From an uncultured Bacilli bacterium (GTDB lineage Bacteria; Bacillota_I; Bacilli_A; RF39; UBA660), in NCBI GenBank assembly GCA_934098485.1, contig CAKOOH010000003.1, positions 1,706 to 65,705 of the forward strand: 64,000 nt of DNA. The letters are read 5' to 3'. This document shows, one piece after another, positions 3,011 to 63,660 of this stretch (the stretch's first letter is position 1; each line of letters starts with the position of its first letter). Under the pieces are notes generated by a model. The model ran no database searches and was not told the origin of the DNA. It worked only from the letters and a program-made list of their open reading frames with translations. The position numbers and the translations under genes are program-made.

Positions 3011-3649
3011 ATGGAAAATGAAAAAAAGATTGAATTAAATTACAAATTATTAATAGTTTTTGCCATCGCAGTTCCATTAATTTTAGGAACCGCTTATGCA
3101 TACTTTTTGCCTAAAATCGCTGGCGATGAGCCAAGTACTATTCAAGGGACAGTTATAAAAGATATCGATTTCAAATTGATAACTCCCGAAGAAAACGGCT
3201 ATATAAATGCAACTGATTTAGTACCTATTAATGATGGAAGATATAGTGAAACAAATGAAGTAGATGACAAAGCAGCAAAGGGAAGTTTTTCTATTGAAAG
3301 TTTAACAACCAATGAAAGGAATTTAAGTTATTCCATCAGTTTTACAGATATAACTATATCTGAAGCCTTAAAAACCGAAGATTTTAGATGGCGTTTAGAA
3401 AAAGTTAACTCTTCTGGTACTGTAACTGCTACTTACGAAGGAAATTTTGCCAGTATAAATAATAATACTAGCATAACTCTTAAAACAAATCTTATTTTAG
3501 CACCTGGTGCTACCGATAATTATATAATTAAACTATGGATAACTAATACTGACTTTGATCAGTGTCCAGATCCAACCAACAAGGCAACCTGTATAATTAA
3601 TACTAGTTTTAGCGGCAAAATATCCGTTGAAGCCGAGTACACTATATAA
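3011..3649 (+). CDS. Secreted or anchored protein with a SipW-type leader (orphan member of the family at 20812, 21489 and 58477)
   Basis: N-terminus MENEKKIELNYKLLIVFAIAVPLILGTAYAYF. C-terminal motif DNYIIKLWITN...TSFSGKISVEA parallels the other family members. No Shine-Dalgarno sequence is visible. Confidence 0.6.
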   Translation: MENEKKIELNYKLLIVFAIAVPLILGTAYAYFLPKIAGDEPSTIQGTVIKDIDFKLITPEENGYINATDLVPINDGRYSETNEVDDKAAKGSFSIESLTTNERNLSYSISFTDITISEALKTEDFRWRLEKVNSSGTVTATYEGNFASINNNTSITLKTNLILAPGATDNYIIKLWITNTDFDQCPDPTNKATCIINTSFSGKISVEAEYTI

Positions 3650-4032: not shown

Positions 4033-4725
4033 TTAAAACGCTTTTTTATTTTTAATAAACTCCCTTAATATTTTGGTCATTGCTCTTTTTTCTATACGGG
4101 AAACATAACTTCTAGAGATTTTTAACTCTTTTGCAATTTCTTTTTGGGTTTGTTCTTTAGAATTATATAAACCATATCTTTTAATAATTATTTCTTTTTC
4201 TCTTAAAGACAAACACTCAATATATTTTAAAAGCAAATCGATATTACTCTGCAAATTAATTTCTTCTGAAATATCACCATTATCCGCTTTTATAACATCA
4301 ATTAAATTAATTTCATTTCCATCTTTATCAAATCCAATTGAATCATTTAAACTTACATTATTTAAATGCTTTTTATTGCTTCTAAAATACATTAGAATTT
4401 CATTTTCTATACATCTTGCTGCATATGTAGTAAGTCTTGTTTTTTTATTTTGCTTGTAAGAATCAATTCCCTTTACTAAACCAATTGTGCCAATACTAAT
4501 TAAATCATCAATGTCATAGTTTTTGCTTTCATATTTTTTAACAATATGAGCAACTAACCTTAAATTATGCTCTATCAGTTTACTTCTAGCTTCCTTATCA
4601 CCCATATACAATTTTTTTAAACAATCTTCTTCTTCCTCTTTACTAAGTTTATCCGGAAAGACATTTATAGAATATGAACCTGTAAAAAATATTAAACTTT
4701 TTATTAAAGAAATTAAATAAAACAT
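4033..4725 (-). CDS. sigK: Sporulation sigma factor pro-SigK (uninterrupted)
   Basis: LIEHNLRLVAHIVKKY, TYAARCIENEILM, DKDGNEINLIDV and EIAKELKISRSYVSRIEKRA match B. subtilis SigK much better than SigE. It has a hydrophobic pro-sequence MFYLISLIKSLIFFTGS/YSINVFP. The ATG at 4725 follows AGAGGTG; an alternative GTG lies at 4731. Confidence 0.8.
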   Translation of the reverse strand: MFYLISLIKSLIFFTGSYSINVFPDKLSKEEEEDCLKKLYMGDKEARSKLIEHNLRLVAHIVKKYESKNYDIDDLISIGTIGLVKGIDSYKQNKKTRLTTYAARCIENEILMYFRSNKKHLNNVSLNDSIGFDKDGNEINLIDVIKADNGDISEEINLQSNIDLLLKYIECLSLREKEIIIKRYGLYNSKEQTQKEIAKELKISRSYVSRIEKRAMTKILREFIKNKKAF

Positions 4726-4797
4726 AAACACCTCTAATTAAATATATGTTTCCATGATTTATTTTATTTGATATAATTTTATTAGGTGATTTAAGTT

Positions 4798-5322: not shown

Positions 5323-6283
5323 AATATGTTATGGTTGTGGTGCTAAACTTCAAACAAAAGATGCTACTCTAAGAGGATACATTCCTAAAGAAAAAGAAAA
5401 TGGCAGTTACTGTCAAAGATGCTTTCGATTAATTCATTACGGTATTAATAATGAAACTAATGCTCCTAAAAGCATCACTAGCTTAATTAACTCTATTAAC
5501 AAAGAAAATAAACTAGTCATCTTTTTAATTCCTTTCTTAACCGTGCGTTCTGATATTATCGAAATCTATAAAAAGATAACATCTCCTAAAATTTTAGTTG
5601 TAAGTAAAATTGATATTGTACCTAGAAGTATAAAATATACTAACATTAAAAATTACTTAACAAGTTACTATCAAATCGCTGATGAAATTAAATTTATAAG
5701 TAGTGTAAGTAATATTGGCATTAAAAGTTTATTAAATTATTTAAGTGAAAATAAAATAAATGAAATCGTCATTGCTGGTGAATCTAACTCCGGAAAAAGC
5801 ACTTTAATTAATAAAATTCTTGAAGAAAAGAAAAGTACTTTATCAAAAGTAACTACTAGTAATACTCCTAATACTACTTTAGATTTTATTAGAATAAATG
5901 TAAGTAAAGATTTAAATATCATTGATACCCCTGGTTTTATTTTAAAAACAATTGAGTTAAAAAGTTTAAATATCTCAAAAAAATATATTAAACCTATCAC
6001 TTTCCAAATGAAAAGTGGCGAAACTTTACAGTTAGATAGCACTTATTTATTTTTTGCAGAAAACACCAATATAACTATTTATTTAAATAATGATACCCTC
6101 ATAAAAAAATATTATAAAGAAATCTTTTTTGAAGAAAGTATCGATGTACCTGCCAACAATGATTTAATAATTAAGGGACTTGGTTTTATCAATATTAAAA
6201 ACGCTACTACCATAAAACTCCACAACTTGCATAGTGATTTATTAGAGCAAAGACCAAGTATTTTTGGAGGATTAAATGAGTAA
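5315..6283 (+). CDS. yqeH: Ribosome biogenesis GTPase YqeH (circularly permuted)
   Basis: N-terminal CxGC...CQRC zinc finger, with SKIDI (G4) preceding GESNSGKST (G1). Confidence 0.8.
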   Translation: MNKICYGCGAKLQTKDATLRGYIPKEKENGSYCQRCFRLIHYGINNETNAPKSITSLINSINKENKLVIFLIPFLTVRSDIIEIYKKITSPKILVVSKIDIVPRSIKYTNIKNYLTSYYQIADEIKFISSVSNIGIKSLLNYLSENKINEIVIAGESNSGKSTLINKILEEKKSTLSKVTTSNTPNTTLDFIRINVSKDLNIIDTPGFILKTIELKSLNISKKYIKPITFQMKSGETLQLDSTYLFFAENTNITIYLNNDTLIKKYYKEIFFEESIDVPANNDLIIKGLGFINIKNATTIKLHNLHSDLLEQRPSIFGGLNE

Positions 6284-17281: not shown

Positions 17282-18487
17282 ATGATAATAAGGGATAATT
17301 ATTTAAAAAAGATGATTAACGCTAAAGATACTCCATTTATAAAAGTCATAACAGGAGTAAGAAGAAGTGGTAAGTCAACTCTATTATTAATGTTTAAAGA
17401 ATATTTATTAAATAATAATGTTAAAGAAGAAAATATAATCCATATGAATTTTGAATCAGCATTATATGATGATATTAAAAACTATAAAGACTTATATACT
17501 TATGTTAAATCAAAAATAAAAAAAGAAAAAATATATTTATTACTAGATGAAGTACAAAATGTTGAAGCATGGGAAAAAGCTATCAACTCTTTCAAAGTTG
17601 ATTTTGATGTAGATATTTATATAACTGGATCAAATGCATATCTATTATCATCTGAATTATCAACACTATTATCTGGTAGATATATTGAAATAAAAATGTA
17701 TCCTTTATCATTTAAAGAATATTTACTATTTAATAATTATGATGAAAGTAATATAAGTGATAAATTTAATGAGTATCTAAAATATGGTGGTTTGCCGGCC
17801 ATTACATTAATAAAGGATAATGACGATTTAGTTTTATCTTATTTAAATGACATTTATAATACAATTGTTAAAAAAGACATCATTGATAGAAATAATTTAA
17901 AAGATACCGCACTACTTGAAAATATTATTAAGTTTGCCGCCAGCAATATAGGAAGTCCTATCTCATCAAGTAAAATAAGTGATTACTTAAATAGTAATAA
18001 AATAGTTGTAAAGTCAAATCATCAAACTATCGATAACTATCTAAATATGCTTGAAAAATCATTTATTATGTATAAAGCAGATCGAACCGATATAAAAAAT
18101 AAATCACTATTAAAAACTTTAGGAAAATACTATATTTCTGATACCGGCATTCGCAATATAATCCTTGGCTTTAGAAATATTGATGAAGGCCATTTGCTTG
18201 AAAATGTAGTTTATTTAGAATTATTAAGAAGAGGCTTTAAAGTAAGCATTGGCAAATCTTCCGATTATAAAGTAGATTTTGTCGCTGAAAATCCGCACAC
18301 TATCAAATATTATCAGGTAACAAAAACTTTATTAAATGATGATGTAAAAGAACGTGAAATAAGAAGTTTAGAAAGTATTAATGATAATTATGAAAAAATT
18401 ATATTAACAATGGATAGATCAATAAATAATGATTTTAATGGTATTAAAGTTATAAATATTATAGACTGGTTACTAAAAGAAGAATAA
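17282..18487 (+). CDS. AAA-family ATPase with a C-terminal DUF4143 / PD-(D/E)xK-like region (COG1373 type)
   Basis: Walker A GVRRSGKST and Walker B LLLDEVQ. The C-terminal GHLLENVVYLELLRRG...YKVDFVA...YYQVTK resembles the nuclease-like tail of this family. Confidence 0.7.
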   Translation: MIIRDNYLKKMINAKDTPFIKVITGVRRSGKSTLLLMFKEYLLNNNVKEENIIHMNFESALYDDIKNYKDLYTYVKSKIKKEKIYLLLDEVQNVEAWEKAINSFKVDFDVDIYITGSNAYLLSSELSTLLSGRYIEIKMYPLSFKEYLLFNNYDESNISDKFNEYLKYGGLPAITLIKDNDDLVLSYLNDIYNTIVKKDIIDRNNLKDTALLENIIKFAASNIGSPISSSKISDYLNSNKIVVKSNHQTIDNYLNMLEKSFIMYKADRTDIKNKSLLKTLGKYYISDTGIRNIILGFRNIDEGHLLENVVYLELLRRGFKVSIGKSSDYKVDFVAENPHTIKYYQVTKTLLNDDVKEREIRSLESINDNYEKIILTMDRSINNDFNGIKVINIIDWLLKEE

Positions 18488-18542
18488 AAGTTTTATAGCT
18501 TTTTTTTCTTTTGTTAAAAAATTCATTTTAAATTCACATATT

Positions 18543-18551
18543 TGCTATAAT
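18543..18551 (+). promoter_or_regulatory. Extended -10 promoter element upstream of the response regulator
   Basis: TGCTATAAT, 21 nt upstream of the ATG at 18572. Confidence 0.45.
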
Positions 18552-18571
18552 ATACTTAAGTGGTGAAAGAA

Positions 18572-19240
18572 ATGAAGATATTAGTATGTGATGATGAAGC
18601 GCTTATCAGAAACGTTATAAAAGAATATTCTCTAAATGAAGGCTATACCGTATACGAAGCAGAAAATGGTGAAGAAGCCATCAATATTTTATTAGAAAAG
18701 GATGTTGATGTAGTAATCCTTGATATCATGATGCCTAAAAAAGACGGCATCACCGCCATTAAAGAAATCAAAGAAATTAAAGATGTTCCTGTTATAATGT
18801 TATCAGCAAGAACCATGGAATTTGATAAACTAAATAGTTTTGAACTAGGTGCTGATGACTATGTTACCAAACCTTTTAGCCCTAAAGAACTAATGGCTCG
18901 CATTAAAGCCGTTACCAAAAGAACTAATAAAGATGAAATTATTACCGTAGATGATATCGTAATAAACAAAACCACTAGAGAATGTCTAATTAAAGGAAAA
19001 ATTATTGAACTTACTCACACTCAGTTTGAACTTTTATATTTATTTTTAACTAATCTAAATATTGTTTTAACTAGAGATAAAATAATAAGTTCCATCTGGG
19101 GTTATGACTATGAAGCCGATGATCGCACCATTGATGCCCACATAAAACTATTAAGAAGTAAAATCGGCCCATACCGTGATAATATCAAAACTATTAGAAA
19201 GGTAGGTTATAAATTTGAATATAAAGAAAAACAGTCTTAG
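18572..19240 (+). CDS. OmpR/PhoB-family response regulator
   Basis: The receiver domain shows ILVCDDE...VILDIMMPKKDG...KP. A winged-helix output domain follows (RTIDAHIKLLRSKI...IKTIRKVGYKF). Confidence 0.9.
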   Translation: MKILVCDDEALIRNVIKEYSLNEGYTVYEAENGEEAINILLEKDVDVVILDIMMPKKDGITAIKEIKEIKDVPVIMLSARTMEFDKLNSFELGADDYVTKPFSPKELMARIKAVTKRTNKDEIITVDDIVINKTTRECLIKGKIIELTHTQFELLYLFLTNLNIVLTRDKIISSIWGYDYEADDRTIDAHIKLLRSKIGPYRDNIKTIRKVGYKFEYKEKQS

Positions 19241-20606
19241 TATTAAGACTTTTGCCTATCTAATTATCTTTTCTGCTTGCATCTTATTACTGCTATGGTT
19301 TTTTCAAATTGGCTTTTTAAAAGTTTTCTATGAACGTTATCAAATAAAAAAAATTGAGCAAATCGCCACTAACATCATTAATAATAAATCAGACATTTTA
19401 AATAATTTAGAAACCACTGCTTATAATAATGAAATATGTATTGACTTATATGTCGGTACCCAAAATGTTAACTATAATACTCTAAATAAAGATTGCTTAC
19501 TAACAAGTAATAATGTTAATATTAAAAAAATCAAAAATAAAATTATTACTAGTTCCAAAGAAACCGTTATTTATCGCGTAGAAAATCCTTCCAATAACTC
19601 TAAAAGTCTTATTTACGGCATTAATTTACCAAATGATGTCCACATTTTATTAAATACTAAATTAGAAGACGTTGGCTCTACCACTAATGTTTTAACTAAT
19701 CAGTTAATCTATATTACGTTAATAACTATTATTCTTTCCATTATTGTATCCTTCTTTGTTGGTAAAATGCTTAATAAACCAATTTTAAACATAACTAAAA
19801 AAGCAAAATCAATGGCTGAAGGTAATTATGAAAAAGACGATATAAAATATAATATTGCTGAATTAGATGAACTAAACGATGTTTTAAATTACGCCTGTAC
19901 TGAAATAAAAAATACGGATGAACTAAGACGAGACTTAATGGCTAATGTATCACATGATTTAAAAACGCCTCTTACTATGATTAAAGCATACGCAGAAATG
20001 GCAAGAGATATAAATAATAATAACGAAGAAAAAAGAACCGAAAATCTAAATGTTATTATTGACGAAGCGGACCGATTAAATATTTTAGTAAATGATATTC
20101 TAGATTTATCCAAACTACAAAACAATAGTAGCAATTTAAATTTAGAAGACTATGACTTAATTGAAGAAGTAAACTCTGTCTTAAATAGATATGAAATAAT
20201 TAAAGAAACGGAAAACTATAATATAATCTTAAATGCCCCCAAAATCGCCGTTGTTCACGCTGATAAAACCAAAATAAATAATGTTCTTTATAATTTAATA
20301 AACAATGCCATAAACTATACGGGTAAAGATTTAACTGTAAAAATAAATATAACTGAAAAAAAGAACACATACTTAGTAGAAATAATTGATACTGGTAAAG
20401 GAATTGACAAGGAAAATTTAAAATTAATTTGGTCAAAATACTATAAAAATGAAAAAAATCATCAAAGAAATGTTGTTGGTACTGGTCTCGGACTTTCTAT
20501 TGTTAAAGAAGTTTTAACCAAACATAAATTTAACTATGGTGTAAAATCTAAAAAGGGTAAAGGAAGTAATTTTTACTTTGAAATAGATAAAGCCAAAATT
20601 TCATAA
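19215..20606 (+). CDS. Sensor histidine kinase (two TM segments, ~130-aa extracytoplasmic loop)
   Basis: H-box SHDLKTPLT, N-box NLINNAINYT, G1 DTGKGI, G2 GTGLGLSIV. Overlaps the response regulator gene. Confidence 0.9.
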   Translation: MNIKKNSLSIKTFAYLIIFSACILLLLWFFQIGFLKVFYERYQIKKIEQIATNIINNKSDILNNLETTAYNNEICIDLYVGTQNVNYNTLNKDCLLTSNNVNIKKIKNKIITSSKETVIYRVENPSNNSKSLIYGINLPNDVHILLNTKLEDVGSTTNVLTNQLIYITLITIILSIIVSFFVGKMLNKPILNITKKAKSMAEGNYEKDDIKYNIAELDELNDVLNYACTEIKNTDELRRDLMANVSHDLKTPLTMIKAYAEMARDINNNNEEKRTENLNVIIDEADRLNILVNDILDLSKLQNNSSNLNLEDYDLIEEVNSVLNRYEIIKETENYNIILNAPKIAVVHADKTKINNVLYNLINNAINYTGKDLTVKINITEKKNTYLVEIIDTGKGIDKENLKLIWSKYYKNEKNHQRNVVGTGLGLSIVKEVLTKHKFNYGVKSKKGKGSNFYFEIDKAKIS

Positions 20607-20635
20607 TATTTTCACATTTTCTTGATAACTTATAT

Positions 20636-20715
20636 AAAGAAGAAGAGATAATTTATTAAAAATAATAAATAATATAAACTCAAACTCACACTTTTAAAAA
20701 ATTTCTTCTTCTTTT
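20636..20715. repeat. 11-bp perfect inverted repeat, 56 nt apart, after the kinase gene (possible long terminator or regulatory stem)
   Basis: AAAGAAGAAGA (20636-20646) pairs with TCTTCTTCTTT (20704-20714), followed by TTTTATT. Confidence 0.5.
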
Positions 20716-20811
20716 ATTATGGAATAAAAATTTTTGAAAATTTAATGAAAAACATATTGATTTATAAATAGCAAAATGTTATTATTGAAATATAGTAAAG
20801 GAGGATATAAA

Positions 20812-21465
20812 ATGAAGGAAGGAAGAAACAATACTATACTATTAACAGTTATTGGTATTGCAACATTATTAGTAGCCGTAGCAGGAGCAACATTTGCATA
20901 CTTCACTGCCCAAACTAGATATAATGACCAAAGTTCAACCTTGATTATTAAATCAGGAGAATCAACATCATTATCATTAACAGGATCATATGTAAAATTA
21001 GAAAACATTTATCCAAAAGCAGAAGCATGGGATACAAAAGTTATTAGTTTTAAAAACGATACTAAAACAGATGTAACTATGTCAAATGAACTTAACTATA
21101 ATTTATACATGAAAGTTCAAAACGGTTTTAGTTCTGGCGCATTAAAGTATACATTTACTCAAGTAACTGGTGAAGAAAATAAAGTATGCTTAACTAAATA
21201 TGGTGACACTGCTTGTGCTGCTGATCAAATGGTTACAACAACTGATACTAATACAGCTAACTTAGTACCAAATGTTACTGAACAAACTCCAATAACAGTT
21301 ACTGGTACTGGTGAAGTACCATTTGGTAACGGTAAATTTGTTGACGGAACACAACAAAAAGCACATGTTTATTTATTAACAATTTACTTCCCAGAAACAG
21401 GTGCTAACCAAAATGCTGATCAAGATAAAACATTTACTGGCACAGTTTCAGTAAAACAAATTTAA
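20812..21465 (+). CDS. SipW-type-leader protein, paralogue 1
   Basis: AAAGGAGG RBS. N-terminus MKEGRNNTILLTVIGIATLLVAVAGATFAYFTAQ (SipW-cognate-type ...AYF motif). Thr/Asn-rich, beta-like body. C-terminal HVYLLTIYFPETGANQNADQDKTFTGTVSV. Confidence 0.75.
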   Translation: MKEGRNNTILLTVIGIATLLVAVAGATFAYFTAQTRYNDQSSTLIIKSGESTSLSLTGSYVKLENIYPKAEAWDTKVISFKNDTKTDVTMSNELNYNLYMKVQNGFSSGALKYTFTQVTGEENKVCLTKYGDTACAADQMVTTTDTNTANLVPNVTEQTPITVTGTGEVPFGNGKFVDGTQQKAHVYLLTIYFPETGANQNADQDKTFTGTVSVKQI

Positions 21466-21488
21466 TAAAATAGAAAAGGAGGACGAAA

Positions 21489-22178
21489 ATGAAAGATAAT
21501 AGAAATAATACATTACTATTAACAGTTATAGCCATTGCTACATTATTAGTAGCCGTAATTGGTGCAACATTCGCATACTTCTCAGCAAATGCTGATGGTT
21601 CTGATCCATCTGTAGTAGAAGTCGGATCTGCATTAATCGAACTTAACTTTGATAGTGATGATGGCGCTGACTTAACAAAAACAGGTCTTCAACCAAAAGG
21701 AACAGCAACTACAATGACAACTGAAAATGCTGTTCTAACAAAAACATTCAAATTAACACAAAGTAATAATACTGATAAAGATTTTACATATGACATTTAT
21801 TTAATTGTTGATGAATCAACATTTGTAAATGATCATCCTGCAACAATTACTGGTGTTACTGGAGATCCTAAATCATTATCTGCTAAATTAATTGGTAGTG
21901 AAGCAACTGGTTCAGCATCATCAACAACTGTATACGTTCCAAGTAGTACTGACACATCTGATGTAACATTAACTGCTAACGATGGTACTACTACTGTTGT
22001 TAAAGGTGTAAAATTAGGAACTGGTACATTTACTCATGGTCAAAATAGCGTAACTCATGAATATACTTTAGAAATTTATTTCTTAGATAGTTTAGAAAAA
22101 CAAGACAATGATAGAAATAAAGATTTCAAAGGTCATATAGCAATTTCTTCAGGAGCAGCTGCAAACAAGCTACAATAG
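21489..22178 (+). CDS. SipW-type-leader protein, paralogue 2
   Basis: AAGGAGG RBS. N-terminus MKDNRNNTLLLTVIAIATLLVAVIGATFAYFSAN. C-terminal HEYTLEIYFLDSLEKQDNDRNKDFKGHIAI. Confidence 0.75.
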   Translation: MKDNRNNTLLLTVIAIATLLVAVIGATFAYFSANADGSDPSVVEVGSALIELNFDSDDGADLTKTGLQPKGTATTMTTENAVLTKTFKLTQSNNTDKDFTYDIYLIVDESTFVNDHPATITGVTGDPKSLSAKLIGSEATGSASSTTVYVPSSTDTSDVTLTANDGTTTVVKGVKLGTGTFTHGQNSVTHEYTLEIYFLDSLEKQDNDRNKDFKGHIAISSGAAANKLQ

Positions 22179-22188
22179 TAGTCGAAAT

Positions 22189-22216
22189 AAGGTCAATAAT
22201 TATGACCTTTTTTTAT
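22189..22216 (+). terminator. Rho-independent terminator between the cargo genes and the signal peptidase gene
   Basis: AAGGTCA-ataatta-TGACCTT followed by a T-run. Confidence 0.8.
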
Positions 22217-22244
22217 TGCACTTTTTTTCCCTCTATTATATAAT
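22216..22244 (+). promoter_or_regulatory. SigA-type promoter for the signal peptidase gene
   Basis: TTGCAC (22216-22221), a 17-nt spacer, then TATAAT (22239-22244). RBS GAGGGTG precedes the ATG at 22269. Confidence 0.55.
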
Positions 22245-22268
22245 ACTTATAGAATACGAGGGTGTCAT

Positions 22269-23096
22269 ATGAGCGAGAGTGCAAAACAAAGATATAAAAA
22301 AATAGCTAAAGCATTTGATTATGTTGGTAAAATCATTTCATCCGCTTTATTGGTAATATTAGTTTTAGTTGGTATATTTTTAGTTTATTATTTAGTCTCT
22401 GCTAAAAAACTAAGTACTGACCCAAATTATGAACCAAGATTATCGCTATTTACTATTGTCAGTGGTTCTATGGAACCAAATATTAAAGTTTATGATGTTG
22501 TATTAGATTCTAGTGTAAGTGATCCCGCATCTATAAAAGTAGGAGACGTTATTACCTTCAAATCAACCGCTAGTATTAGTAGAGACTTAACTGTAACCCA
22601 CAGGGTAGTTGATATTAAATTAGTTAATGGTAAATATGAATACGTAACTAAAGGTGACTGGAACCCTGCCATTGACAGTGATACGGCTAAATTTGAAAAT
22701 GTCATTGGTAAAGTTATCTTAAGATTTCCTCAGCTTGGTAGAGTTCAATTCTTCTTATCAACAAGAATGGGCTGGTTTCTAGTAGTATTACTACCGGCCA
22801 TGGGAGTTATCGTTTATGATATCATTAAACTAATAAAACTACTTGCTACTAAAAAAACTGCCGAAAAAATCCCTGATGATAAAAATAGTAACGGTGAGTT
22901 AAGTGCCAAAGAAAAAATAGCACTTGAAACCAATAAAGAATTAAATGAAACCCTAGAAAAAATAAAAAAGAATAACTATATAAATCAAATAAATGATTTA
23001 AAAGAAGATATTAAAGATAATGAAAATATTGCATCATCCGAAAAAGAAAGTAGTATAAATAACAACAAAGATAATGAAAATAAATTAGAGTGGTAA
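22269..23096 (+). CDS. sipW: ER/archaeal-type signal peptidase I (SipW-like) with a long C-terminal tail
   Basis: SGSMEPNI (catalytic Ser), VTHRVV (His in place of the Lys of P-type SPases), TKGDWNPAIDSD. TM segments lie at the N-terminus and at about residues 165-187, followed by an ~85-aa K/E/N-rich tail. Confidence 0.8.
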   Translation: MSESAKQRYKKIAKAFDYVGKIISSALLVILVLVGIFLVYYLVSAKKLSTDPNYEPRLSLFTIVSGSMEPNIKVYDVVLDSSVSDPASIKVGDVITFKSTASISRDLTVTHRVVDIKLVNGKYEYVTKGDWNPAIDSDTAKFENVIGKVILRFPQLGRVQFFLSTRMGWFLVVLLPAMGVIVYDIIKLIKLLATKKTAEKIPDDKNSNGELSAKEKIALETNKELNETLEKIKKNNYINQINDLKEDIKDNENIASSEKESSINNNKDNENKLEW

Positions 23097-23573: not shown

Positions 23574-24410
23574 ATGAACAAAATTAAAAATTATAATAAA
23601 ACGGTATTTGAAGAGATTAAACATATTGATAATAATGGTAATGAATTTTGGTATGCTAGAGAATTGCAAATTGCTTTAGAGTATAAGAGATGGGATAAGT
23701 TTATAAATGTAATAGAGAATGCAAAGATTGCATGTGAAACCAGTAATAATATAGTATTAGACCATTTTTCCCAGGTGGGAAAAATGGTCAAGATTGGTTC
23801 AGGTGCCATTAGAAAACAAGTTGATTACAAACTTTCAAGATATGCTTGTTACTTAATAATGCAAAATTCTGATCCTAGAAAGGAAGTTGTTGCTCTAGGT
23901 CAAACATACTTTGCCATTCAAACCAGAAAACAAGAACTAATCGAAAAAGAATATTCTACGTTAACCGAAGATGAAAAAAGATTTTATCAAAGAAATTTAA
24001 CCAAAAAAGGCAATTCTTCTTTAAATCAAACTGCCAAAAATTGTGGTGTTAAAAATTTTGATAAATTTCATAATGCTGGATATAAAGGATTATATAATGG
24101 TGAAACGGCAAATGATATTGCTAAAAGAAAAAACTTAAGATATCGCGAAGATATTTTAGATAACATGGGAAGTGTTGAATTAGCCGCAAACCTTTTCCGT
24201 ATAACACAAACTGAATCAAAATTAAAAAGAGACAATATTTCCAGTGAAAATGAAGCAACAATGGTTCATTTCAATATTGGAAAAAATATTAGAGAAGTAA
24301 TCGCTAAAAACGGCGGAACAATGCCCGAAGATTTACCAACACCAAAAAAATCATTAAAAGAAATAGAAAAAGAAAAGAAAACACAAATAAAATTAGAAAC
24401 AACGAAATAA
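23574..24410 (+). CDS. dinD: DNA-damage-inducible protein D (DinD-family)
   Basis: The N-terminal segment FEEIKHIDNNGNEFWYARELQIALEYKRWDKFINVIENAKIACE tracks E. coli DinD as I remember it. So does LSRYACYLIMQNSDPRKEVVALGQTYFAIQTRKQE. Strong RBS AAGGAGG. Confidence 0.8.
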   Translation: MNKIKNYNKTVFEEIKHIDNNGNEFWYARELQIALEYKRWDKFINVIENAKIACETSNNIVLDHFSQVGKMVKIGSGAIRKQVDYKLSRYACYLIMQNSDPRKEVVALGQTYFAIQTRKQELIEKEYSTLTEDEKRFYQRNLTKKGNSSLNQTAKNCGVKNFDKFHNAGYKGLYNGETANDIAKRKNLRYREDILDNMGSVELAANLFRITQTESKLKRDNISSENEATMVHFNIGKNIREVIAKNGGTMPEDLPTPKKSLKEIEKEKKTQIKLETTK

Positions 24411-58400: not shown

Positions 58401-58476
58401 ACGTATGCAATATTAACTTGACGTGGGTGGGGGATTATTAGTACAATTATATAGAAAATAACAGGTGATGTTAGGT

Positions 58477-60207
58477 ATGAAAGATGTAAAGAAAAATAAC
58501 GTAACAGTAGTAGTATTAATTGTGATATTAACAATGATAATTGGAATGAGTTTATCGTATGCATTCTTTTCTGCTAGAATAAGTGGAACAGAAAGTGAAT
58601 CAACAATAGTAATGGAAGCAGGAAGTTTATCTATAGAATATACAGATTTATCAAATGTAATAAGTGTATCAAAAGTATATCCAAGAGAAGAAGCTTGGGT
58701 AACCAAAGAATTTAAAGTAACTGGGACAAATACAACAAATTTAGTATTATTTTATAAATTAAAAATAGTTTTAGATAATAATGAGTTTGAAGGCTTAGGT
58801 TTAAGTTACAGTTTAGAAAGTGAAAACACTGGAAATAATGGAAATATAATTCCAAGTATAAGTAAAGAATACATAGGAAAAGATGATATTAATTTAGGTC
58901 AAGGATATTTTATAAATACAGGAACAACACCAAAAGAACATAAATATACATTAAAAATATATTTAAAAGAAAATGGAGAAGATCAAAACTATTTACAAGG
59001 AGCCAAATTTGCTGCTCATATAGAAATAGAGGCAGGAGATAAAGCGGTAGAAGTAACACCAAAAGGATGGGATGAAGCAGGAAGTGGCACCTTACTAGCC
59101 GGAATAAAAGCAAATTATCCCACAGTAATGCAGCCGTTAACCAATCCAGGAAAAGAAGGATCAGCAGATAATGAAGCAGTATTAGCGGGTGCAGTTGATG
59201 ACTATGGGATGAGTTATTACTTTAGAGGAAATGTAACCAATAACTATGTCCAGTTTGCAAACAAATGCTGGAGAATTGTGCGTGTAACTGGCGATGGCTC
59301 AATTAAATTAGTACTTCATAATGACAATGTAAATAATGTAGCAAGTCCATGTGCATCATCAAATAATAGTACGTCAGCAGCCTTTGCAAGATATAGTGGA
59401 ACAACATATGAAACTAAATATAATGAACAAAAAAATGATAATACATATGTAGGATTTATGTATGGAACAGCCGGATCAAGTAAATATGCCGAAACTCATG
59501 CAAATATAAATAAAAGTACCATTTTACAAAACTTAGAAACATGGTATAAAAATAATTTAGCAACATATGAAAGCAAACTAGCAGATACCATCTGGTGTAA
59601 TGATAAAAGTACAAAAACTAATCAAACTATAATATATACAATTTTAAATACCAAAACTAATAAATTAAGTAAAGGTAGAAGCAATTATCCAGGACTCGGA
59701 TATGGAACAAATAACACATTATATAGTGGAGTACAAAGAACAGGAGCAAACTATCATTCTATAAATACTTCAGGCAAACAATATGGACCAGTAGGAACGG
59801 GACCAACATTAATATGTCCATTAGATAATGCTGGCGGAAAGTTATCCAAGTTAACAGTTTCAGATACAATTAATGGTAATGGAACATTAGATTATAAAGT
59901 TGGGTTACTTACAGTGGACGAAGTGTTATATGCTGGAAGTATTGATTGGTCTGGATATCAAGCATTAAATTATTCTGACTCATCAATAAATAGTTATTTA
60001 AAAGAAAATGCAAGCGATGGGTATTGGACCATTTCGCCTAGTTACTTCGATGGTGATGCCCGCGTGCTTAACGTGGGGGGCAGTGGCAGTGTCGGCAATA
60101 ATTGGGTGAAGAGCACGCTCGGTCTTCGTCCGGCAGTTTCTCTTACGAGCACAACGACGATATCTGGAGGAAATGGCACCTCATCAAATCCGTTTGTAAT
60201 TAATTAA
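58477..60207 (+). CDS. Large (576-aa) multidomain surface protein with a SipW-type leader and a family-specific N-terminal domain
   Basis: The ATG at 58477 lies 8 nt after AGGTGA. The leader is MKDVKKNNVTVVVLIVILTMIIGMSLSYAFFSA. Residues ~35-190 are paralogous to 20812 and 21489 (KVYPREEAWVTKEF..., HKYTLKIYLKENGEDQNYLQGAKFAAHIEIEA). Further regions follow with YYFRGNVTNNYVQFANKCWRIVRV and a C-terminal GYWTISP...LGLRPAVSL module. Confidence 0.75.
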   Translation: MKDVKKNNVTVVVLIVILTMIIGMSLSYAFFSARISGTESESTIVMEAGSLSIEYTDLSNVISVSKVYPREEAWVTKEFKVTGTNTTNLVLFYKLKIVLDNNEFEGLGLSYSLESENTGNNGNIIPSISKEYIGKDDINLGQGYFINTGTTPKEHKYTLKIYLKENGEDQNYLQGAKFAAHIEIEAGDKAVEVTPKGWDEAGSGTLLAGIKANYPTVMQPLTNPGKEGSADNEAVLAGAVDDYGMSYYFRGNVTNNYVQFANKCWRIVRVTGDGSIKLVLHNDNVNNVASPCASSNNSTSAAFARYSGTTYETKYNEQKNDNTYVGFMYGTAGSSKYAETHANINKSTILQNLETWYKNNLATYESKLADTIWCNDKSTKTNQTIIYTILNTKTNKLSKGRSNYPGLGYGTNNTLYSGVQRTGANYHSINTSGKQYGPVGTGPTLICPLDNAGGKLSKLTVSDTINGNGTLDYKVGLLTVDEVLYAGSIDWSGYQALNYSDSSINSYLKENASDGYWTISPSYFDGDARVLNVGGSGSVGNNWVKSTLGLRPAVSLTSTTTISGGNGTSSNPFVIN

Positions 60208-60247
60208 AAACATAGTTCATTATAAAATAAACTATGTTTTTTTTCTT
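60208..60247. terminator. Bidirectional terminator between convergent genes
   Basis: AAACATAGTT - 12-nt loop - AACTATGTTT, flanked by an A-run and a T-run. The 3' arm overlaps the stop codon of the minus-strand gerB-type gene. Confidence 0.75.
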
Positions 60248-61215
60248 TTTCTAAATAACTTACTAAGAATAAACAATACCATAACTCCTAAAAGCATATA
60301 TGTATAATATTTCAAATAAAAATCGGTAACTTTATAAGTATTAAGTGCATATTTATTTAATGCCCAAATCATAACAATTATAATAATAAGTAAAAACTTA
60401 CTACAAGTAATTTCTTTAATATTAACACATGATAATCCCGTAAGAACAAAAATATTAATAATCCATAAGGTAAATAATATATTTTCGATATTTTCAATAA
60501 AATTTAAAATAGAAATTCTTTTAAACACCATATATTCAGGATATCTATAAAGTTTAGATACTTCAATTCCTAAGTTACCAATTGTACAAAGTAATATAAT
60601 TAATAATAAAAAGGCTGAAGCAAGATAAACTTTATAATCATATTTTTCTTTAAAATCATCAACTAATATCATAGGGCTCGTACTAATTAATGCAAAATCT
60701 AAAGCCGACCATAATATCTTACTAATGCTACTAGTCATAACTGGCAAAAAGAAATCAACTTTAATTGTTGGAACTAATGTAAAAGCCGCACATAGATACA
60801 AAAAGATATGTAAATAAACTAATATGCCCGCACTTTTATATAAAGTTTCTCGTCCTTTTAAAGCTGTATAATAAATTAGATAGCCACCAGGAATAAGTAC
60901 AATATAAGTAGGTGTTCTAGATAAATATATTGAAGAAACTAGTTTTCCAATTAGCATCGTTCCAATTACTAAAAAGCAGATACTATAAAGAAGTTTAAAA
61001 AATTTATTATCTTCCCTCGGTATCGATTTAATAATAAAATTTATTCCCAGTCCCATAATTGTTCCTATTAAAATTGATATCCAAGCATCTGAACCTACAT
61101 TTTTAATAATCTTCGAAAAACCAACTCCCATAAATAGGGGAAATGTTAATAAATAAATTAAACTAACGCTTTCTAACTTAGTTATTTTTTTCATGTTCTT
61201 CACCAATTGGTCCAA
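60232..61215 (-). CDS. Spore germinant receptor subunit B (GerAB/GerKB-type permease)
   Basis: About 10 TM helices; last gene of a gerA-type operon. Confidence 0.75.
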   Translation of the reverse strand: MDQLVKNMKKITKLESVSLIYLLTFPLFMGVGFSKIIKNVGSDAWISILIGTIMGLGINFIIKSIPREDNKFFKLLYSICFLVIGTMLIGKLVSSIYLSRTPTYIVLIPGGYLIYYTALKGRETLYKSAGILVYLHIFLYLCAAFTLVPTIKVDFFLPVMTSSISKILWSALDFALISTSPMILVDDFKEKYDYKVYLASAFLLLIILLCTIGNLGIEVSKLYRYPEYMVFKRISILNFIENIENILFTLWIINIFVLTGLSCVNIKEITCSKFLLIIIIVMIWALNKYALNTYKVTDFYLKYYTYMLLGVMVLFILSKLFRKRKKT

Positions 61216-62245
61216 AAATTAGACCCTTTCTATCCAATTTAACTTGAACATTTACTTCATAATTAATATCTTTAATATCATTAATCTTATCTCTTTTTGC
61301 GTTGTAATATTTCTTTTTAAAACCAAGTACATCGGCATTATTATCTATTAAAATCGTTATAAATTCTTTCGTATCTTCTTTTATCTTATCTTTAACTAAA
61401 CTAATAATTTTTTTAACATTTTCCTTATTATTTAAATTAAGCGCTTCTGTTTCATTAAATATTCCTAAAATTTTTAAGTTAATTTTAAATTTATCATCTT
61501 CATAAGTAATGTCACTGCTAGAATTAATCACTTTAAAAACAAATTCTTTATCTTCATAATTTACAGGAAATAAAGTAAGTTTATTATCACCATTAATCAT
61601 ATTATAAATTTGAATCATTTGAATATTAATTTCATTTACCATCTTTTCTTTAGAAAAAATAACCGCTTCACTTACTTTAATATCAGTTTTATCATCGCTT
61701 ATCTTCGGTAAAATAATATTATAATATCCCGATATATAATTTTCCAGAAAATCATTAAATTTTATATTTATCGTATTATTAAATTTACTTTCTATAATAT
61801 CTTTAATATAATTACCTACAATTTTTTCCTTCTTTTTTACTATTTCTATAGTTTTTTCAATATCATTATCTATTACAATATTAAAATTAACACCCACATT
61901 ATTTTCTCTCGTTAAATAGTCCATTATAAAGTCTAATTTACTATTAGCAGCCACTTCGCTTAAAACAACTGTATCTAAATCAATAAAATATAAGGCCTTA
62001 TTTACCGAAAAAGATATATTCTTTAAAGCACCAATTAAAGAGTCACCACTTCCTTTATATATTAAAGAAGCATTTTCATTTTCCTTTTTATTTTCTCTAA
62101 TTTCTACAATTACATTATATTTATCATCACTATAATCAACCCCAATTAGTGAAACCATTGCCATTTTATTTAGTTCCATATGATTATAACAGCCTGATAA
62201 AAATAAACACATTATAATTAATAATATCTTTTTTATAAATATCAC
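61178..62245 (-). CDS. Spore germinant receptor subunit C (Ger(x)C lipoprotein)
   Basis: Lipobox LFLSGC followed by YNHMELNKMAMVSLIGVD, typical of GerAC-family N-termini. Confidence 0.8.
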   Translation of the reverse strand: MIFIKKILLIIMCLFLSGCYNHMELNKMAMVSLIGVDYSDDKYNVIVEIRENKKENENASLIYKGSGDSLIGALKNISFSVNKALYFIDLDTVVLSEVAANSKLDFIMDYLTRENNVGVNFNIVIDNDIEKTIEIVKKKEKIVGNYIKDIIESKFNNTINIKFNDFLENYISGYYNIILPKISDDKTDIKVSEAVIFSKEKMVNEINIQMIQIYNMINGDNKLTLFPVNYEDKEFVFKVINSSSDITYEDDKFKINLKILGIFNETEALNLNNKENVKKIISLVKDKIKEDTKEFITILIDNNADVLGFKKKYYNAKRDKINDIKDINYEVNVQVKLDRKGLIFGPIGEEHEKNN

Positions 62246-63660
62246 CTTTGCTTTCTTATATTATTTGTTAAATATTTACTTCTTGTTAAATCGTTTTTCT
62301 TCTTACTTTTTATAAGTGTATCTTTTAAATAAGATAAATCAAATGGTGCGACAGGGAATGTATAGGGAAGAGTAAATGAATAATAAGATGATATACTAAC
62401 AATTAATAAAATAAAGGAAATAGATACTCCGTATAATCCGTAAAATGATGCAAATAATAGAGCAATAAATCTCCAGCATCTAAACGCTCCGGTTAACTCA
62501 ACATTACTAAATATCATTGATGATATAAATGTTAACGATATTATTATTATCATAATGGGGCTTACAATATTAGCACTTACTGCAGCATCACCTAAAATAA
62601 GTGCTCCTAAAATAGAGATAGATGCAGAAAAGGATGAAGGAAATCGTAAATCACTTTCTCTTAACATTTCACAAATAAATAACATAAAAAATGCTTCAAT
62701 CGTAGCCGGAAAGGGGACACCTGCACTTTGCGTTATAAATGATGTAAGTAACGTTGCCGGTATTGTTTCCTGATTAAAATTAACCACCGCTATATAAATT
62801 GCGGGTGTAAAAATAGTTATAAAAAGGCAAATAAAACGTAACGCTTTTAAAATATTAGCGTTAAAACTCGTCAGATAATTATCAGAAATAGGGTTAATAA
62901 AATCAACTAGAACTACTGGTAAAATAATTGCAAAAGGGCATGTATCAACAATTATTACAATTTTGCCTTCCAAAAGAGCCCTCACAATGGCATCTGGTCT
63001 TTCGGTAAGTTTTACTGATGGAAAAAAACTTTTACCTTCCTTAATTAAAAATTGCTTAAGTTCACCTGCATCAATAATTGCCTCAGTATCTATTTTTCTT
63101 AAAAGTTTATCACACTCAATAACTAGTTTATTTTTACAAATATTATCTATATACACCATACCCGTATTAGTACTAGTATATCTTCCTATTTTATATTCTT
63201 TTATTTTTAAATTGTTCGATTTAATTCTTCTTTTAATAAGACCAATATTTTTTTGATAGTTTTCAACAAATGCATCCTTAGCACCATATAAATCTTGTTC
63301 AATTTCCGGTGAAGAAATCGCTCTATCTAAATCTGCTCTTGTTTCTAAAGCATATAATTTATTAAAGTAAACAATTATTGAGTAGCCATTAAAAATATAT
63401 TTTTCAAATTCTGTAATTTTAATCTTTTTTAAATTGGGTCCCGCTAAAATATTATCAATACTAGGTTTATTTACTGGATTAGTTAAATTATCTAAAATAA
63501 AACTATTAACTCTATCACTACTACTAATAGTTTCAATATAATAAATATATACATACCCAAGTTTATACTTTATCTTTCTTACAATTAAATCGGGTGTATC
63601 TTTAAAATTAGATAATACTTTATTTATCGTTTTCATATAATCACATTTTATTATGAGCAT
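62242..63660 (-). CDS. Spore germinant receptor subunit A (GerAA-type)
   Basis: TERPDAIVRALLEGKIVIIVDTCPFAIILP and a C-terminal block of TM helices. Confidence 0.85.
   Translation of the reverse strand: MLIIKCDYMKTINKVLSNFKDTPDLIVRKIKYKLGYVYIYYIETISSSDRVNSFILDNLTNPVNKPSIDNILAGPNLKKIKITEFEKYIFNGYSIIVYFNKLYALETRADLDRAISSPEIEQDLYGAKDAFVENYQKNIGLIKRRIKSNNLKIKEYKIGRYTSTNTGMVYIDNICKNKLVIECDKLLRKIDTEAIIDAGELKQFLIKEGKSFFPSVKLTERPDAIVRALLEGKIVIIVDTCPFAIILPVVLVDFINPISDNYLTSFNANILKALRFICLFITIFTPAIYIAVVNFNQETIPATLLTSFITQSAGVPFPATIEAFFMLFICEMLRESDLRFPSSFSASISILGALILGDAAVSANIVSPIMIIIISLTFISSMIFSNVELTGAFRCWRFIALLFASFYGLYGVSISFILLIVSISSYYSFTLPYTFPVAPFDLSYLKDTLIKSKKKNDLTRSKYLTNNIRKQR

Follow-up and report, generated by a model that had tools for sequence, protein, structure and literature searches.

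In Bacillus and Clostridium, the protein scaffold of biofilms is made of TasA-type fibres. The closest described relative of the locus considered here is the sipW-bsaABCRSD operon of C. perfringens, in which SipW, two TasA-like paralogues and a two-component system (TCS) have already been described together (PMC7395162; PMC11580942). BsaA of C. perfringens forms polymers stable in sodium dodecyl sulfate (SDS) by donor-strand exchange (PMC7395162, PMC11580942); among the relatives of BsaA and TasA the structure is kept, the sequence is strongly diverged, and there are often several paralogues per operon (PMC11580942). We report a module of comparable composition in a stretch of 64,000 nucleotides (below, "the window"; all positions refer to it, and all features lie on its plus strand unless said otherwise) from contig CAKOOH010000003.1 of an uncultured Bacilli bacterium. 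It consists of genes for a response regulator (RR) and a histidine kinase (HK), two tandem paralogous genes with SipW-type leaders, which we call cargo1 and cargo2, and a gene for a SipW-like signal peptidase, referred to as sipW. The first-pass annotation of this DNA proposed a SipW-type module with cargo of no recognisable family, possibly under the control of a dedicated TCS. The peptidase and the two cargos with cognate leaders are retained in our analysis; the cargo class is not new, the dedicated TCS is doubtful, and the architecture is of a kind already known from C. perfringens sipW-bsaABCRSD. What is new beyond the known systems is the size and poor annotation of the cargo family, a strain-level cassette, and an RNA candidate linked to the TCS.

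As in the bsa operon, a SipW-type peptidase accompanies two tandem TasA-like paralogues with SipW-type leaders and a same-strand OmpR-class TCS; in both cases the cargo is remote from Bacillus TasA, and monomer models have a disordered N-terminus, the proposed donor strand. Unlike in the bsa operon, the TCS comes first here and the peptidase last, with a promoter of its own behind a terminator. No vWA gene (BsaC-like) occurs between 18500 and 24500, and BsaD is also absent. There is no cis evidence that the TCS drives the module, and the window cargos form a separate sequence family, hypervariable between strains.

The tapA-sipW-tasA operon of B. subtilis and sipW-tasA/calY of B. cereus (8aur; PMC9674648; PMC10151520) have in common with the window a peptidase of the endoplasmic reticulum (ER)/archaeal type, the leader motif G-[GA]-T-[FW]-A-x-F, a mature all-beta domain of ~200 amino acids (aa), the collinear motifs ..TLDL.. 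/ ..P.. / TKxF.., and two related subunits side by side; PF12389 is passed by relatives of the window cargos. They differ in that the window cargos fall under the Pfam and hhalign thresholds and have a template-modelling score (TM) to TasA of 0.36-0.37, no counterpart of TasA's helical insertions is predicted in the window cargo, the window peptidase gene does not lie between cargo genes, and the Bacillus systems are under SinR/SlrR regulation with no adjacent TCS. A more remote parallel is the archaeal bundling pilus protein AbpA (7ueg; PMC9245690), a divergent member of the same structural class that is likewise processed by an ER/archaeal-type peptidase; the structural match is weak, AbpA belongs to another domain of life, and no sequence link is shown.

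The cargo family, its leaders and its signal peptidase

The genes, motifs, gap, terminator and promoter-like site listed in the first-pass annotation were all found again at their positions in the open reading frame (ORF) list and the raw sequence. The products of cargo1 (20812-21465; 217 aa) and cargo2 (21489-22178; 229 aa) are paralogues (33% identity, E 9e-25) with the common leader MK(E/D)xRNNT(I/L)LLTVI.IATLLVAV.GATFAYF(T/S)A, which takes up residues 1-29 of each protein (20812-20898 and 21489-21575). The ribosome-binding site AAAGGAGG precedes both genes; a longer ORF from 20776 was rejected as the cargo1 gene, since ATG 20812 comes right behind AAAGGAGG.

Judged by sequence profiles, the cargo family is a divergent branch of the camelysin/TasA (Peptidase_M73; PF12389) superfamily and no new fold class, because close relatives of the cargos clear the Peptidase_M73 threshold. 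The relative P0200 scores 27.6 bits, above the gathering score of 22.5; P0217 scores 23.0 bits (cutoff 22.5), with residues 15-191 placed on model positions 12-181 of 196. Both match the family profile at ~1e-37 (cargo1 itself at E 7.8e-58), and cargo2 aligns with P0217 end to end (29% identity, E 2e-25). Among 129 family representatives, all at E<=1e-35 to the family profile, Peptidase_M73 is the commonest Pfam match (19 of the 129 at E<=0.01, best E 3e-6). It had been claimed earlier that the cargos have no recognisable family. This stands for their own sequences, which have no Pfam match; the notion of an unrecognisable class does not, as the relatives pass Peptidase_M73. A profile search against the TasA/M73 and TIGR04088 models had been suggested as the check: the direct comparisons were negative or below the cutoff, and the transitive one through P0200 and P0217 was positive, so that a match to a characterised family, named earlier as evidence to the contrary, was found in part through these Peptidase_M73 relatives.

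The family is large. A collection clustered at 90% identity holds 517 homologues, none with a precomputed Pfam domain; at 50% identity there are at least 4,798 cluster representatives at E<=1e-3, with 2,040 of E<=1e-10. At least 495 family loci were found in species-representative genomes. The carriers are nearly all metagenome-assembled genomes (MAGs) from human and animal guts, labelled as uncultured Bacilli, "Tenericutes", Erysipelotrichaceae, CAG:582 or Candidatus Onthocola, so that the family is almost confined to uncultured gut Bacilli. The same kind of system is thus widespread in the gut Bacilli known from MAGs only (at least 495 loci; at least 4,798 protein clusters). Most of the family escapes the domain models now in use, so its genes are annotated as hypothetical. 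A search of the literature on TIGR04088 and "SipW-dependent" proteins returned nothing on this cargo family. In longer relatives, the N-terminal family domain is fused to BspA-type leucine-rich repeats (LRR), DUF285, Flg_new or DUF6273, which are C-terminal domains of the adhesin type.

The structure of cargo2 was modelled with AlphaFold both as the precursor (pLDDT, the predicted local distance difference test, 84.8; pTM, the predicted TM, 0.71) and as the mature protein (pLDDT 86.2, pTM 0.82). The models have a leader helix followed by a 10-strand beta-sandwich; the first ~18 mature residues have pLDDT 44-64. Removal of the leader helix raises pTM from 0.71 to 0.82 and gives no better TasA match. 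In the Foldseek comparison with the PDB, the TasA fibre 8aur_A has the top probability among the top-ranked matches (0.97 and 0.89; E 0.009-0.012), the archaeal bundling pilus 7ueg stands further down the list (rank 26, probability 0.47), and the remaining matches are beta-sandwiches of a generic kind, CBM22, CBM3 and the EphA4 ligand-binding domain among them. The likeness of the predicted fold to TasA is suggestive only. The mature N-terminus is conserved in the family, with the consensus YFTAxxxGxExxSTxxV, though it is disordered in the monomer model; in monomer models of BsaA, the donor segment is also a loose, disordered loop (PMC11580942).

Leader positions L11, T12, I14, A17, T18, L19 and G25-F31 are invariant in 56 sequences. 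GATFAYF of the cargo leaders aligns with GGTWAAF of TasA, whose mature end, GGGTWA/AFND, was checked against 8aur. It had been supposed that the leaders are cleaved after AYF; the TasA alignment puts the predicted cut before YF, GATFA/YF(S/T)A, that is, at A29/Y30.

The signal peptidase I gene (22269-23096; 275 aa) encodes an ER/archaeal-type, SipW-like enzyme that scores 102.8 bits with TIGR02228 (cutoff 51.85) and 18.5 bits with the bacterial P-type model TIGR02227 (cutoff 47). Its motifs SGSMEP, THRV and GDWNP (GDWNPxxD) start at residues 65, 110 and 129; S67, H111, D130 and D136 are invariant (at least 95% conserved) among 55 distinct homologues, and the enzyme is of the Ser-His type with no Lys general base. 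The earlier assignment to the Ser-His ER/archaeal type is borne out by the TIGR02228 score and the invariant Ser, His and Asp. The model of the Bacillus SipW equivalog, NF046067, is not reached (86.8 bits, cutoff 190); because this cutoff is missed, the peptidase is, by sequence criteria, an enzyme of the SipW type, with orthology to Bacillus SipW not demonstrated by the NF046067 criterion. A sequence search of the PDB with the peptidase gave nothing relevant. Its C-terminal tail of ~85 aa (residues ~190-275; 22836-23096) is Asn/Lys/Glu-rich and cytoplasmic; the homologues span 208-479 aa, and the tail accounts for most of this range. The C-terminal region of B. subtilis SipW has a second, regulatory role.

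The association of cargo and peptidase was examined in 90 fetched loci, chosen through the cargo, in which ORFs were scored with the family profile and the window proteins. A SipW-like gene adjoins the cargo in 63 of them; the co-occurrence of the two, which had been put up for testing, thus holds across lineages. The cargo genes number two or more in tandem in 57/90 loci, and an orthologous RR-HK pair lies directly upstream of the cargo in 37/90 (HK E 1e-120 to 1e-293); cargo-SipW modules are also found without a TCS. The order in close relatives is yebC / RR / HK / cargo / cargo / SipW / rimP-nusA-infB. Both paralogue classes are retained across lineages and are older than the lineage splits. 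Tandem family arrays reach ten members in L067 (2909-12460 of that locus), with four each in L054, L074 and L084. In L007 (5530-8007), the TCS-cargo-cargo-SipW module is directly followed by T2SSF (PilC-like) and prepilin peptidase A24 genes; these neighbours recall C. perfringens, where secretion of Bsa proteins depends on the type IV pilus.

The cargo pair and sipW have separate conserved promoters with a terminator in between. A promoter scan placed the cargo promoter at 20757-20785 (-35 TTGATT, 17 nt, TGt and the extended -10 TATTAT). Downstream of it lies the conserved transcript leader ATATAGTAAAGGAGGATATAAA-ATG, and promoter and leader are kept in the distant lineages L007, L015, L017, L019, L020, L021, L024 and L031. 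The gap between cargo1 and cargo2 is 23 nt with no terminator, as had been reported, and is unfolded (0 kcal/mol). The intrinsic terminator after cargo2 (22184-22214; fold -9.2 kcal/mol, z -3.8) is present as described earlier; it is moderate and not "strong", having a 7-bp core stem with 3 GC pairs. A hairpin and T-run occur at this position in 11/11 lineages compared. The sipW promoter (22216-22244) is the TTGCAC-17-TATAAT site noticed before; TTGCAC (22216-22221), which agrees with the -35 consensus at only 3/6 bases, is separated by a 17-nt spacer from TATAAT (22239-22244). The form TTG(C/T)A(C/T/A)-17-TATAAT is conserved across lineages, the succession of terminator and promoter is retained in 11/11 lineages examined, and the conserved leader ATAGAATAcGAGGGTG follows downstream.

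Variation between strains and the proposed function of the cargos

The window was compared with L001, a locus from the same species. Amino-acid identity is 99% for the RR, 100% for the HK and 96% for SipW, against 45% for cargo1 and 44% for cargo2. DNA identity is 95-100% as far as ~20899, the codon after the predicted cleavage site, where it drops from 95% to 58%; it is 41-73% in mature cargo1, 70-81% in the cargo2 leader, 30-70% in mature cargo2, and 100% from the terminator on. The variable stretches are 20899-21465 and 21576-22178 in the window against 5420-5977 and 6088-6714 in L001, and the breakpoints of this cassette are the leader end and the terminator. The mature-domain identity between the two strains (37-38%) is no higher than between distant lineages. 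A third allele class, in L004, is 83% and 79% identical. Identical kinases go with identical cargo alleles: the lookup of exact HK matches gave only the window's own strain type. Because strains with an identical HK share their cargo alleles, the variation is allelic replacement between strain lineages with no fast switching. Such a cassette would be expected of an exposed, abundant surface structure; the swap of exposed domains marks the cargos as likely targets of phages or host antibodies, and makes them useful as strain markers and as candidates for colonisation studies.

On balance, and with modest confidence, we favour the reading that the cargos are secreted structural proteins of the TasA/camelysin branch, served by a dedicated SipW-type peptidase and forming fibres by donor-strand exchange. 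The cargo pair would be expressed from a strong promoter of its own, with an extended -10 and a consensus ribosome-binding site, and sipW would be transcribed at a lower level, likewise from its own promoter. The precursors would enter the membrane through Sec and be cleaved by SipW at GATFA/YF(S/T)A; the freed mature N-terminus of ~18 residues would act as a donor strand for the beta-sandwich of the next subunit. Extracellular fibres would be built in this way as in TasA and BsaA, with cargo2 as the major subunit and cargo1 as the minor one (or nucleator), and the longer paralogues with BspA-LRR, DUF285, Flg_new or DUF6273 might join the fibre via the same N-terminal domain. The exposed fibre surface may be under selection by phages or host antibodies; we propose that it is because of this selection that mature domains differ by ~55% between strains while the genes on either side of them are 96-100% identical.

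A number of results weigh against this reading. Neither cargo has any Pfam match, PF12389 is not matched at E<=0.1 by either, and only 6 of the 56 close relatives match it, weakly. The model of the SipW-cognate leader, TIGR04088, gives 17.8 bits for both cargos, just under the cutoff of 19 (on the supporting side, 46/56 relatives match it at E<=1). Comparison by hhalign of the cargo family with a 35-member alignment of Bacillus TasA is not significant either with the leaders (probability 3.4%, E 0.013) or for the mature parts only (E 0.088), and the same holds against the TasA sequence alone (a query identical to PDB 8aur and 5of1). A hidden Markov model built from Bacillus TasA alone finds only weak, collinear matches in the cargo family, and a family profile search of PDB sequences returned nothing relevant. 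The Peptidase_M73 signal of the relatives is partly leader-derived, and the match in P0200 covers residues 18-94 only. Foldseek against the PDB gave no match at E<=1e-3 for either the full precursor or the mature domain, and the TM of 8aur_A (0.36-0.37), the highest of the list, is yet low. We saw neither a TapA-like anchor nor a sortase or LPXTG motif in the module, and the cassette, as said, shows replacement between lineages and no rapid switching. A weak match to the TapA model (TIGR04087; E 1.8e-4, 21 bits, cutoff 80) was not used as evidence.

The strongest competing explanation of the cargos, which we nonetheless consider unlikely, is that they use the SipW route as non-polymerising secreted or surface proteins: monomeric adhesins, a surface coat or spore-associated proteins. 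TasA was originally reported as spore coat-associated protein N, and the present organism, to judge from its gerA operon and sigma factor (see below), is a spore former; the relatives fused to adhesin-type domains would suit this explanation, as would the lack of a confident match to a solved structure, the matches being generic beta-sandwiches. The hypervariability fits any exposed protein equally well. Polymers are favoured by the mature N-terminus, which is conserved yet lies outside the monomer fold, as is the case for a donor strand. The two conserved tandem paralogue classes, with up to ten copies in L067, resemble sets of pilin or fibre subunits, and the strong promoter and ribosome-binding site suggest a structural product made in abundance.

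It is quite improbable, in our view, that the N-terminal hydrophobic segment is retained, either to anchor the protein in the membrane or to serve as a pilin-like assembly helix cut by a prepilin peptidase and not by SipW. The segment is unusually conserved (at the leader positions listed above, in the same 56 sequences), but the leader is equally conserved in the TasA family, and its motif belongs with those of TasA/CalY (G-[GA]-T-x-A-x-F) and differs from that of prepilins, G/F-T-L-x-E. The T2SSF and peptidase A24 genes after the module in L007, together with the dependence of C. perfringens Bsa secretion on type IV pilus genes, would agree with a retained helix; these genes were seen in one lineage only, whereas the sipW gene is a constant neighbour. 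That the cargos are camelysin-type metalloproteases is hardly credible: the idea draws on the name of PF12389 as matched by relatives, the protease assignment of CalY is likely a misidentification (PMC11580942), and neither a metal-binding nor a catalytic motif is found among the conserved residues P69, K85, F87, Y101, Y192, L194, F198 and Q205.

The two-component system and a candidate small RNA

The RR gene (18560-19240) encodes an OmpR/PhoB-class regulator (Pfam Response_reg 3.4e-31, Trans_reg_C 1.1e-22); translation probably begins at ATG 18572, which is preceded by a GGTGA ribosome-binding site. The best NCBIfam match, PhoB at 201.5 bits, is under the cutoff of 296, so no equivalog is assigned. 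The HK gene (19215-20606; 463 aa; Pfam HisKA 4.6e-19, HATPase_c 3.7e-21) encodes a transmembrane segment, an extracytoplasmic stretch of ~130 aa, a second transmembrane segment, and HAMP, HisKA and HATPase domains; a PAS domain was not detected, and the protein is below the cutoffs of the WalK, PnpS and PhoR models.

The TCS promoter (18522-18551) contains the direct repeats TTCATT-N5-TTCACA (18522-18538) followed by TGc and TATAAT (18546-18551). Repeats and TGnTATAAT are found with the same geometry in 39 of 61 distinct orthologous loci, and we infer a putative autoregulatory RR box with an extended -10. A second promoter of the RR-box type (20600-20631) overlaps the HK stop codon (20604-20606); it consists of TTCATA (20600-20605), N5, TTCACA (20611-20616), and TGa with TAACTT (20626-20631), and has a third in-phase half-site TTGATA (20622-20627). 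The TTCAYA repeat fits the PhoP box of B. subtilis, TT(A/T/C)ACA with 11-bp phasing.

Behind the second promoter lies a candidate small RNA of ~85 nt (20636-20722) with a 5' purine arm (20636-20649), a 3' pyrimidine arm (20701-20714) and a U-rich tail; its fold is -13.6 kcal/mol (z -2.95). The loop carries the invariant motif CATATAAACTCAAACTCACAC; the exact 18-mer stands at 20674-20691 and is present as a single copy in each of 16 loci, between HK and the gene that follows. Covariation of the two arms is seen from lineage to lineage (GAAGAAGA/TCTTCTTC, GAAAAAGG/CCTTTTTC, TAGGGAAAA/TTTTCCCTA, GGGAAG/CTTCCC). Folded sequence by sequence, the arm duplexes are in most loci stronger than all but a few of 200 shuffled controls, the exceptions being those with the shortest arms, L043 and L063; RNAalifold on a MAFFT alignment, in which the arms are out of register, gave no pairs. 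The spacing is constant in 23 distinct loci, with 9 nt from the second repeat to TAnnnT and 6-8 nt from there to the first purine of the 5' arm. Many lineages have a canonical terminator after the motif; the candidate of the window has no strong terminator of its own. Rfam holds no family that matches the candidate. In L140 (minus strand), two tandem candidates, each with a terminator, lie downstream of the orthologous kinase gene (motifs at 5859-5875 and 6081-6097).

A 17-mer scan of metagenomes gave at least 120 stretches, and RR/HK-like or cargo-family ORFs were present in 43 of those listed. Many of the 17-mer matches are chance ones from marine and soil contigs, and only the 43 with relevant ORFs were looked at further. 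Seventeen contigs were studied closely: immediately 5' of the motif they have an orthologous RR-HK pair in the same orientation, and in most of them unrelated genes instead of cargo lie downstream of the RNA element.

It is tempting to see in the TCS an activator dedicated to the cargo and sipW promoters, as the first-pass annotation did and as BsaR/BsaS act on the sipW promoter of C. perfringens. This precedent, the order RR-HK-cargo(-cargo)-SipW in 37/90 cargo loci with a clearly orthologous HK, and the possibility that transcripts from the RR-box promoter run on into the cargo genes, the RNA of the window lacking a strong terminator, all speak for such control. The count of 37/90, however, rests on loci selected by their cargo and may reflect shared synteny within one clade. 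The repeats TTCAYA-N5-TTCAYA are absent at the cargo and sipW promoters, and their conserved copies stand only upstream of the RR gene and the small RNA; the cargo promoter combines a good -35 with an extended -10 and lacks any conserved repeat. A TGAAAA-N5-TGAAAA sequence just 5' of the cargo -35 was considered as an inverted RR box and rejected, as it is not conserved in relatives. The TCS and the RNA precede unrelated genes in many contigs, and cargo-SipW modules exist without a TCS. Dedicated control is therefore doubtful, because the repeats are only at the TCS's own promoter and that of the RNA, and because the RNA follows the TCS where there is no cargo. On these sequence grounds the TCS is probably not dedicated to the cargo; it seems to be autoregulated, with the candidate small RNA rather than the fibre genes as its clearest local target. 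Most likely it is a general, autoregulated system of the PhoPR/WalRK kind that would influence the fibre genes, if at all, indirectly or by read-through.

Targets of the RNA motif were sought in the leaders of RR, cargo1, cargo2 and sipW and in the whole window, and none was convincing. The sipW leader is the sole weak stand-out (-12.5 kcal/mol, 7/300 shuffles as good); the top match in the window as a whole was rejected, being antisense to the RR gene.

A described parallel is PhoS of Bacillus, encoded in the 3' UTR (untranslated region) of phoR: a PhoP-stimulated small RNA that promotes matrix (tasA, eps) expression indirectly (PMC11522486). The candidate is alike in its place directly 3' of the kinase gene of an OmpR-class TCS, in a predicted extended -10 promoter of its own, apparently dependent on the regulator of the system, and in an invariant C/A-rich stretch of ~17-21 nt with a terminator (PMC11522486). 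Unlike PhoS, the candidate is found beside a TCS with no equivalog-level PhoPR assignment and a kinase with no PAS domain, and no sequence similarity to PhoS is shown. The RNA candidate and the repeat boxes constitute a testable regulon of a conserved TCS in uncultured organisms.

Taking both parts of the locus together, we put forward tentatively, as possible rather than likely in its entirety, that a large unrecognised TasA branch provides the main exposed surface fibre of a spore-forming clade of uncultured gut Bacilli; that its two subunit genes would form an antigenic cassette swapped between strains by recombination anchored in the leader and the terminator; and that an autoregulated TCS would act via a new small RNA, analogous to PhoS, coupling an environmental signal to the production of matrix or surface structures.

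Host, flanking genes and further family members

The window contains a gerA-type spore germination operon (GerA, GerAC, spore permease) at 60232-63660 and a gene for a sigma-70-family, sporulation-type factor at 4033-4731. From this operon and this factor, the gut lineage, known from MAGs only and sometimes labelled "Tenericutes", is apparently spore-forming. On neither strand of the 64-kb window does any Rfam family score as high as its gathering threshold, and the window consequently holds no tRNA, rRNA or known riboswitch; its GC content is 27%.

In the window's strain type, the module is flanked by a gene for an AAA_14/DUF4143 ATPase (17282-18487) and a dinD (Bro-N) gene (23574-24410). Both are missing at the corresponding positions in L001, L004 and L012, and thus resemble strain-specific insertions that border the variable cassette on both sides.

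There are two further members of the cargo family in the window. The third (58465-60207; 580 aa), whose gene stands directly after ftsA-ftsZ, has the variant leader ..SLSYAFFSA and an N-terminal cargo-like domain (family profile E 2.6e-40; BLASTP against cargo2 E 9e-14, residues 5-194), followed by a C-terminal DUF6273 domain (26.8 bits); it may be an adhesin-carrying subunit. The fourth and more distant member (3011-3649; 212 aa; leader ..LGTAYAYFLP; family profile E 4.9e-07) adjoins tsaD and is found in the same position in L009, L020, L024, L093 and L099.

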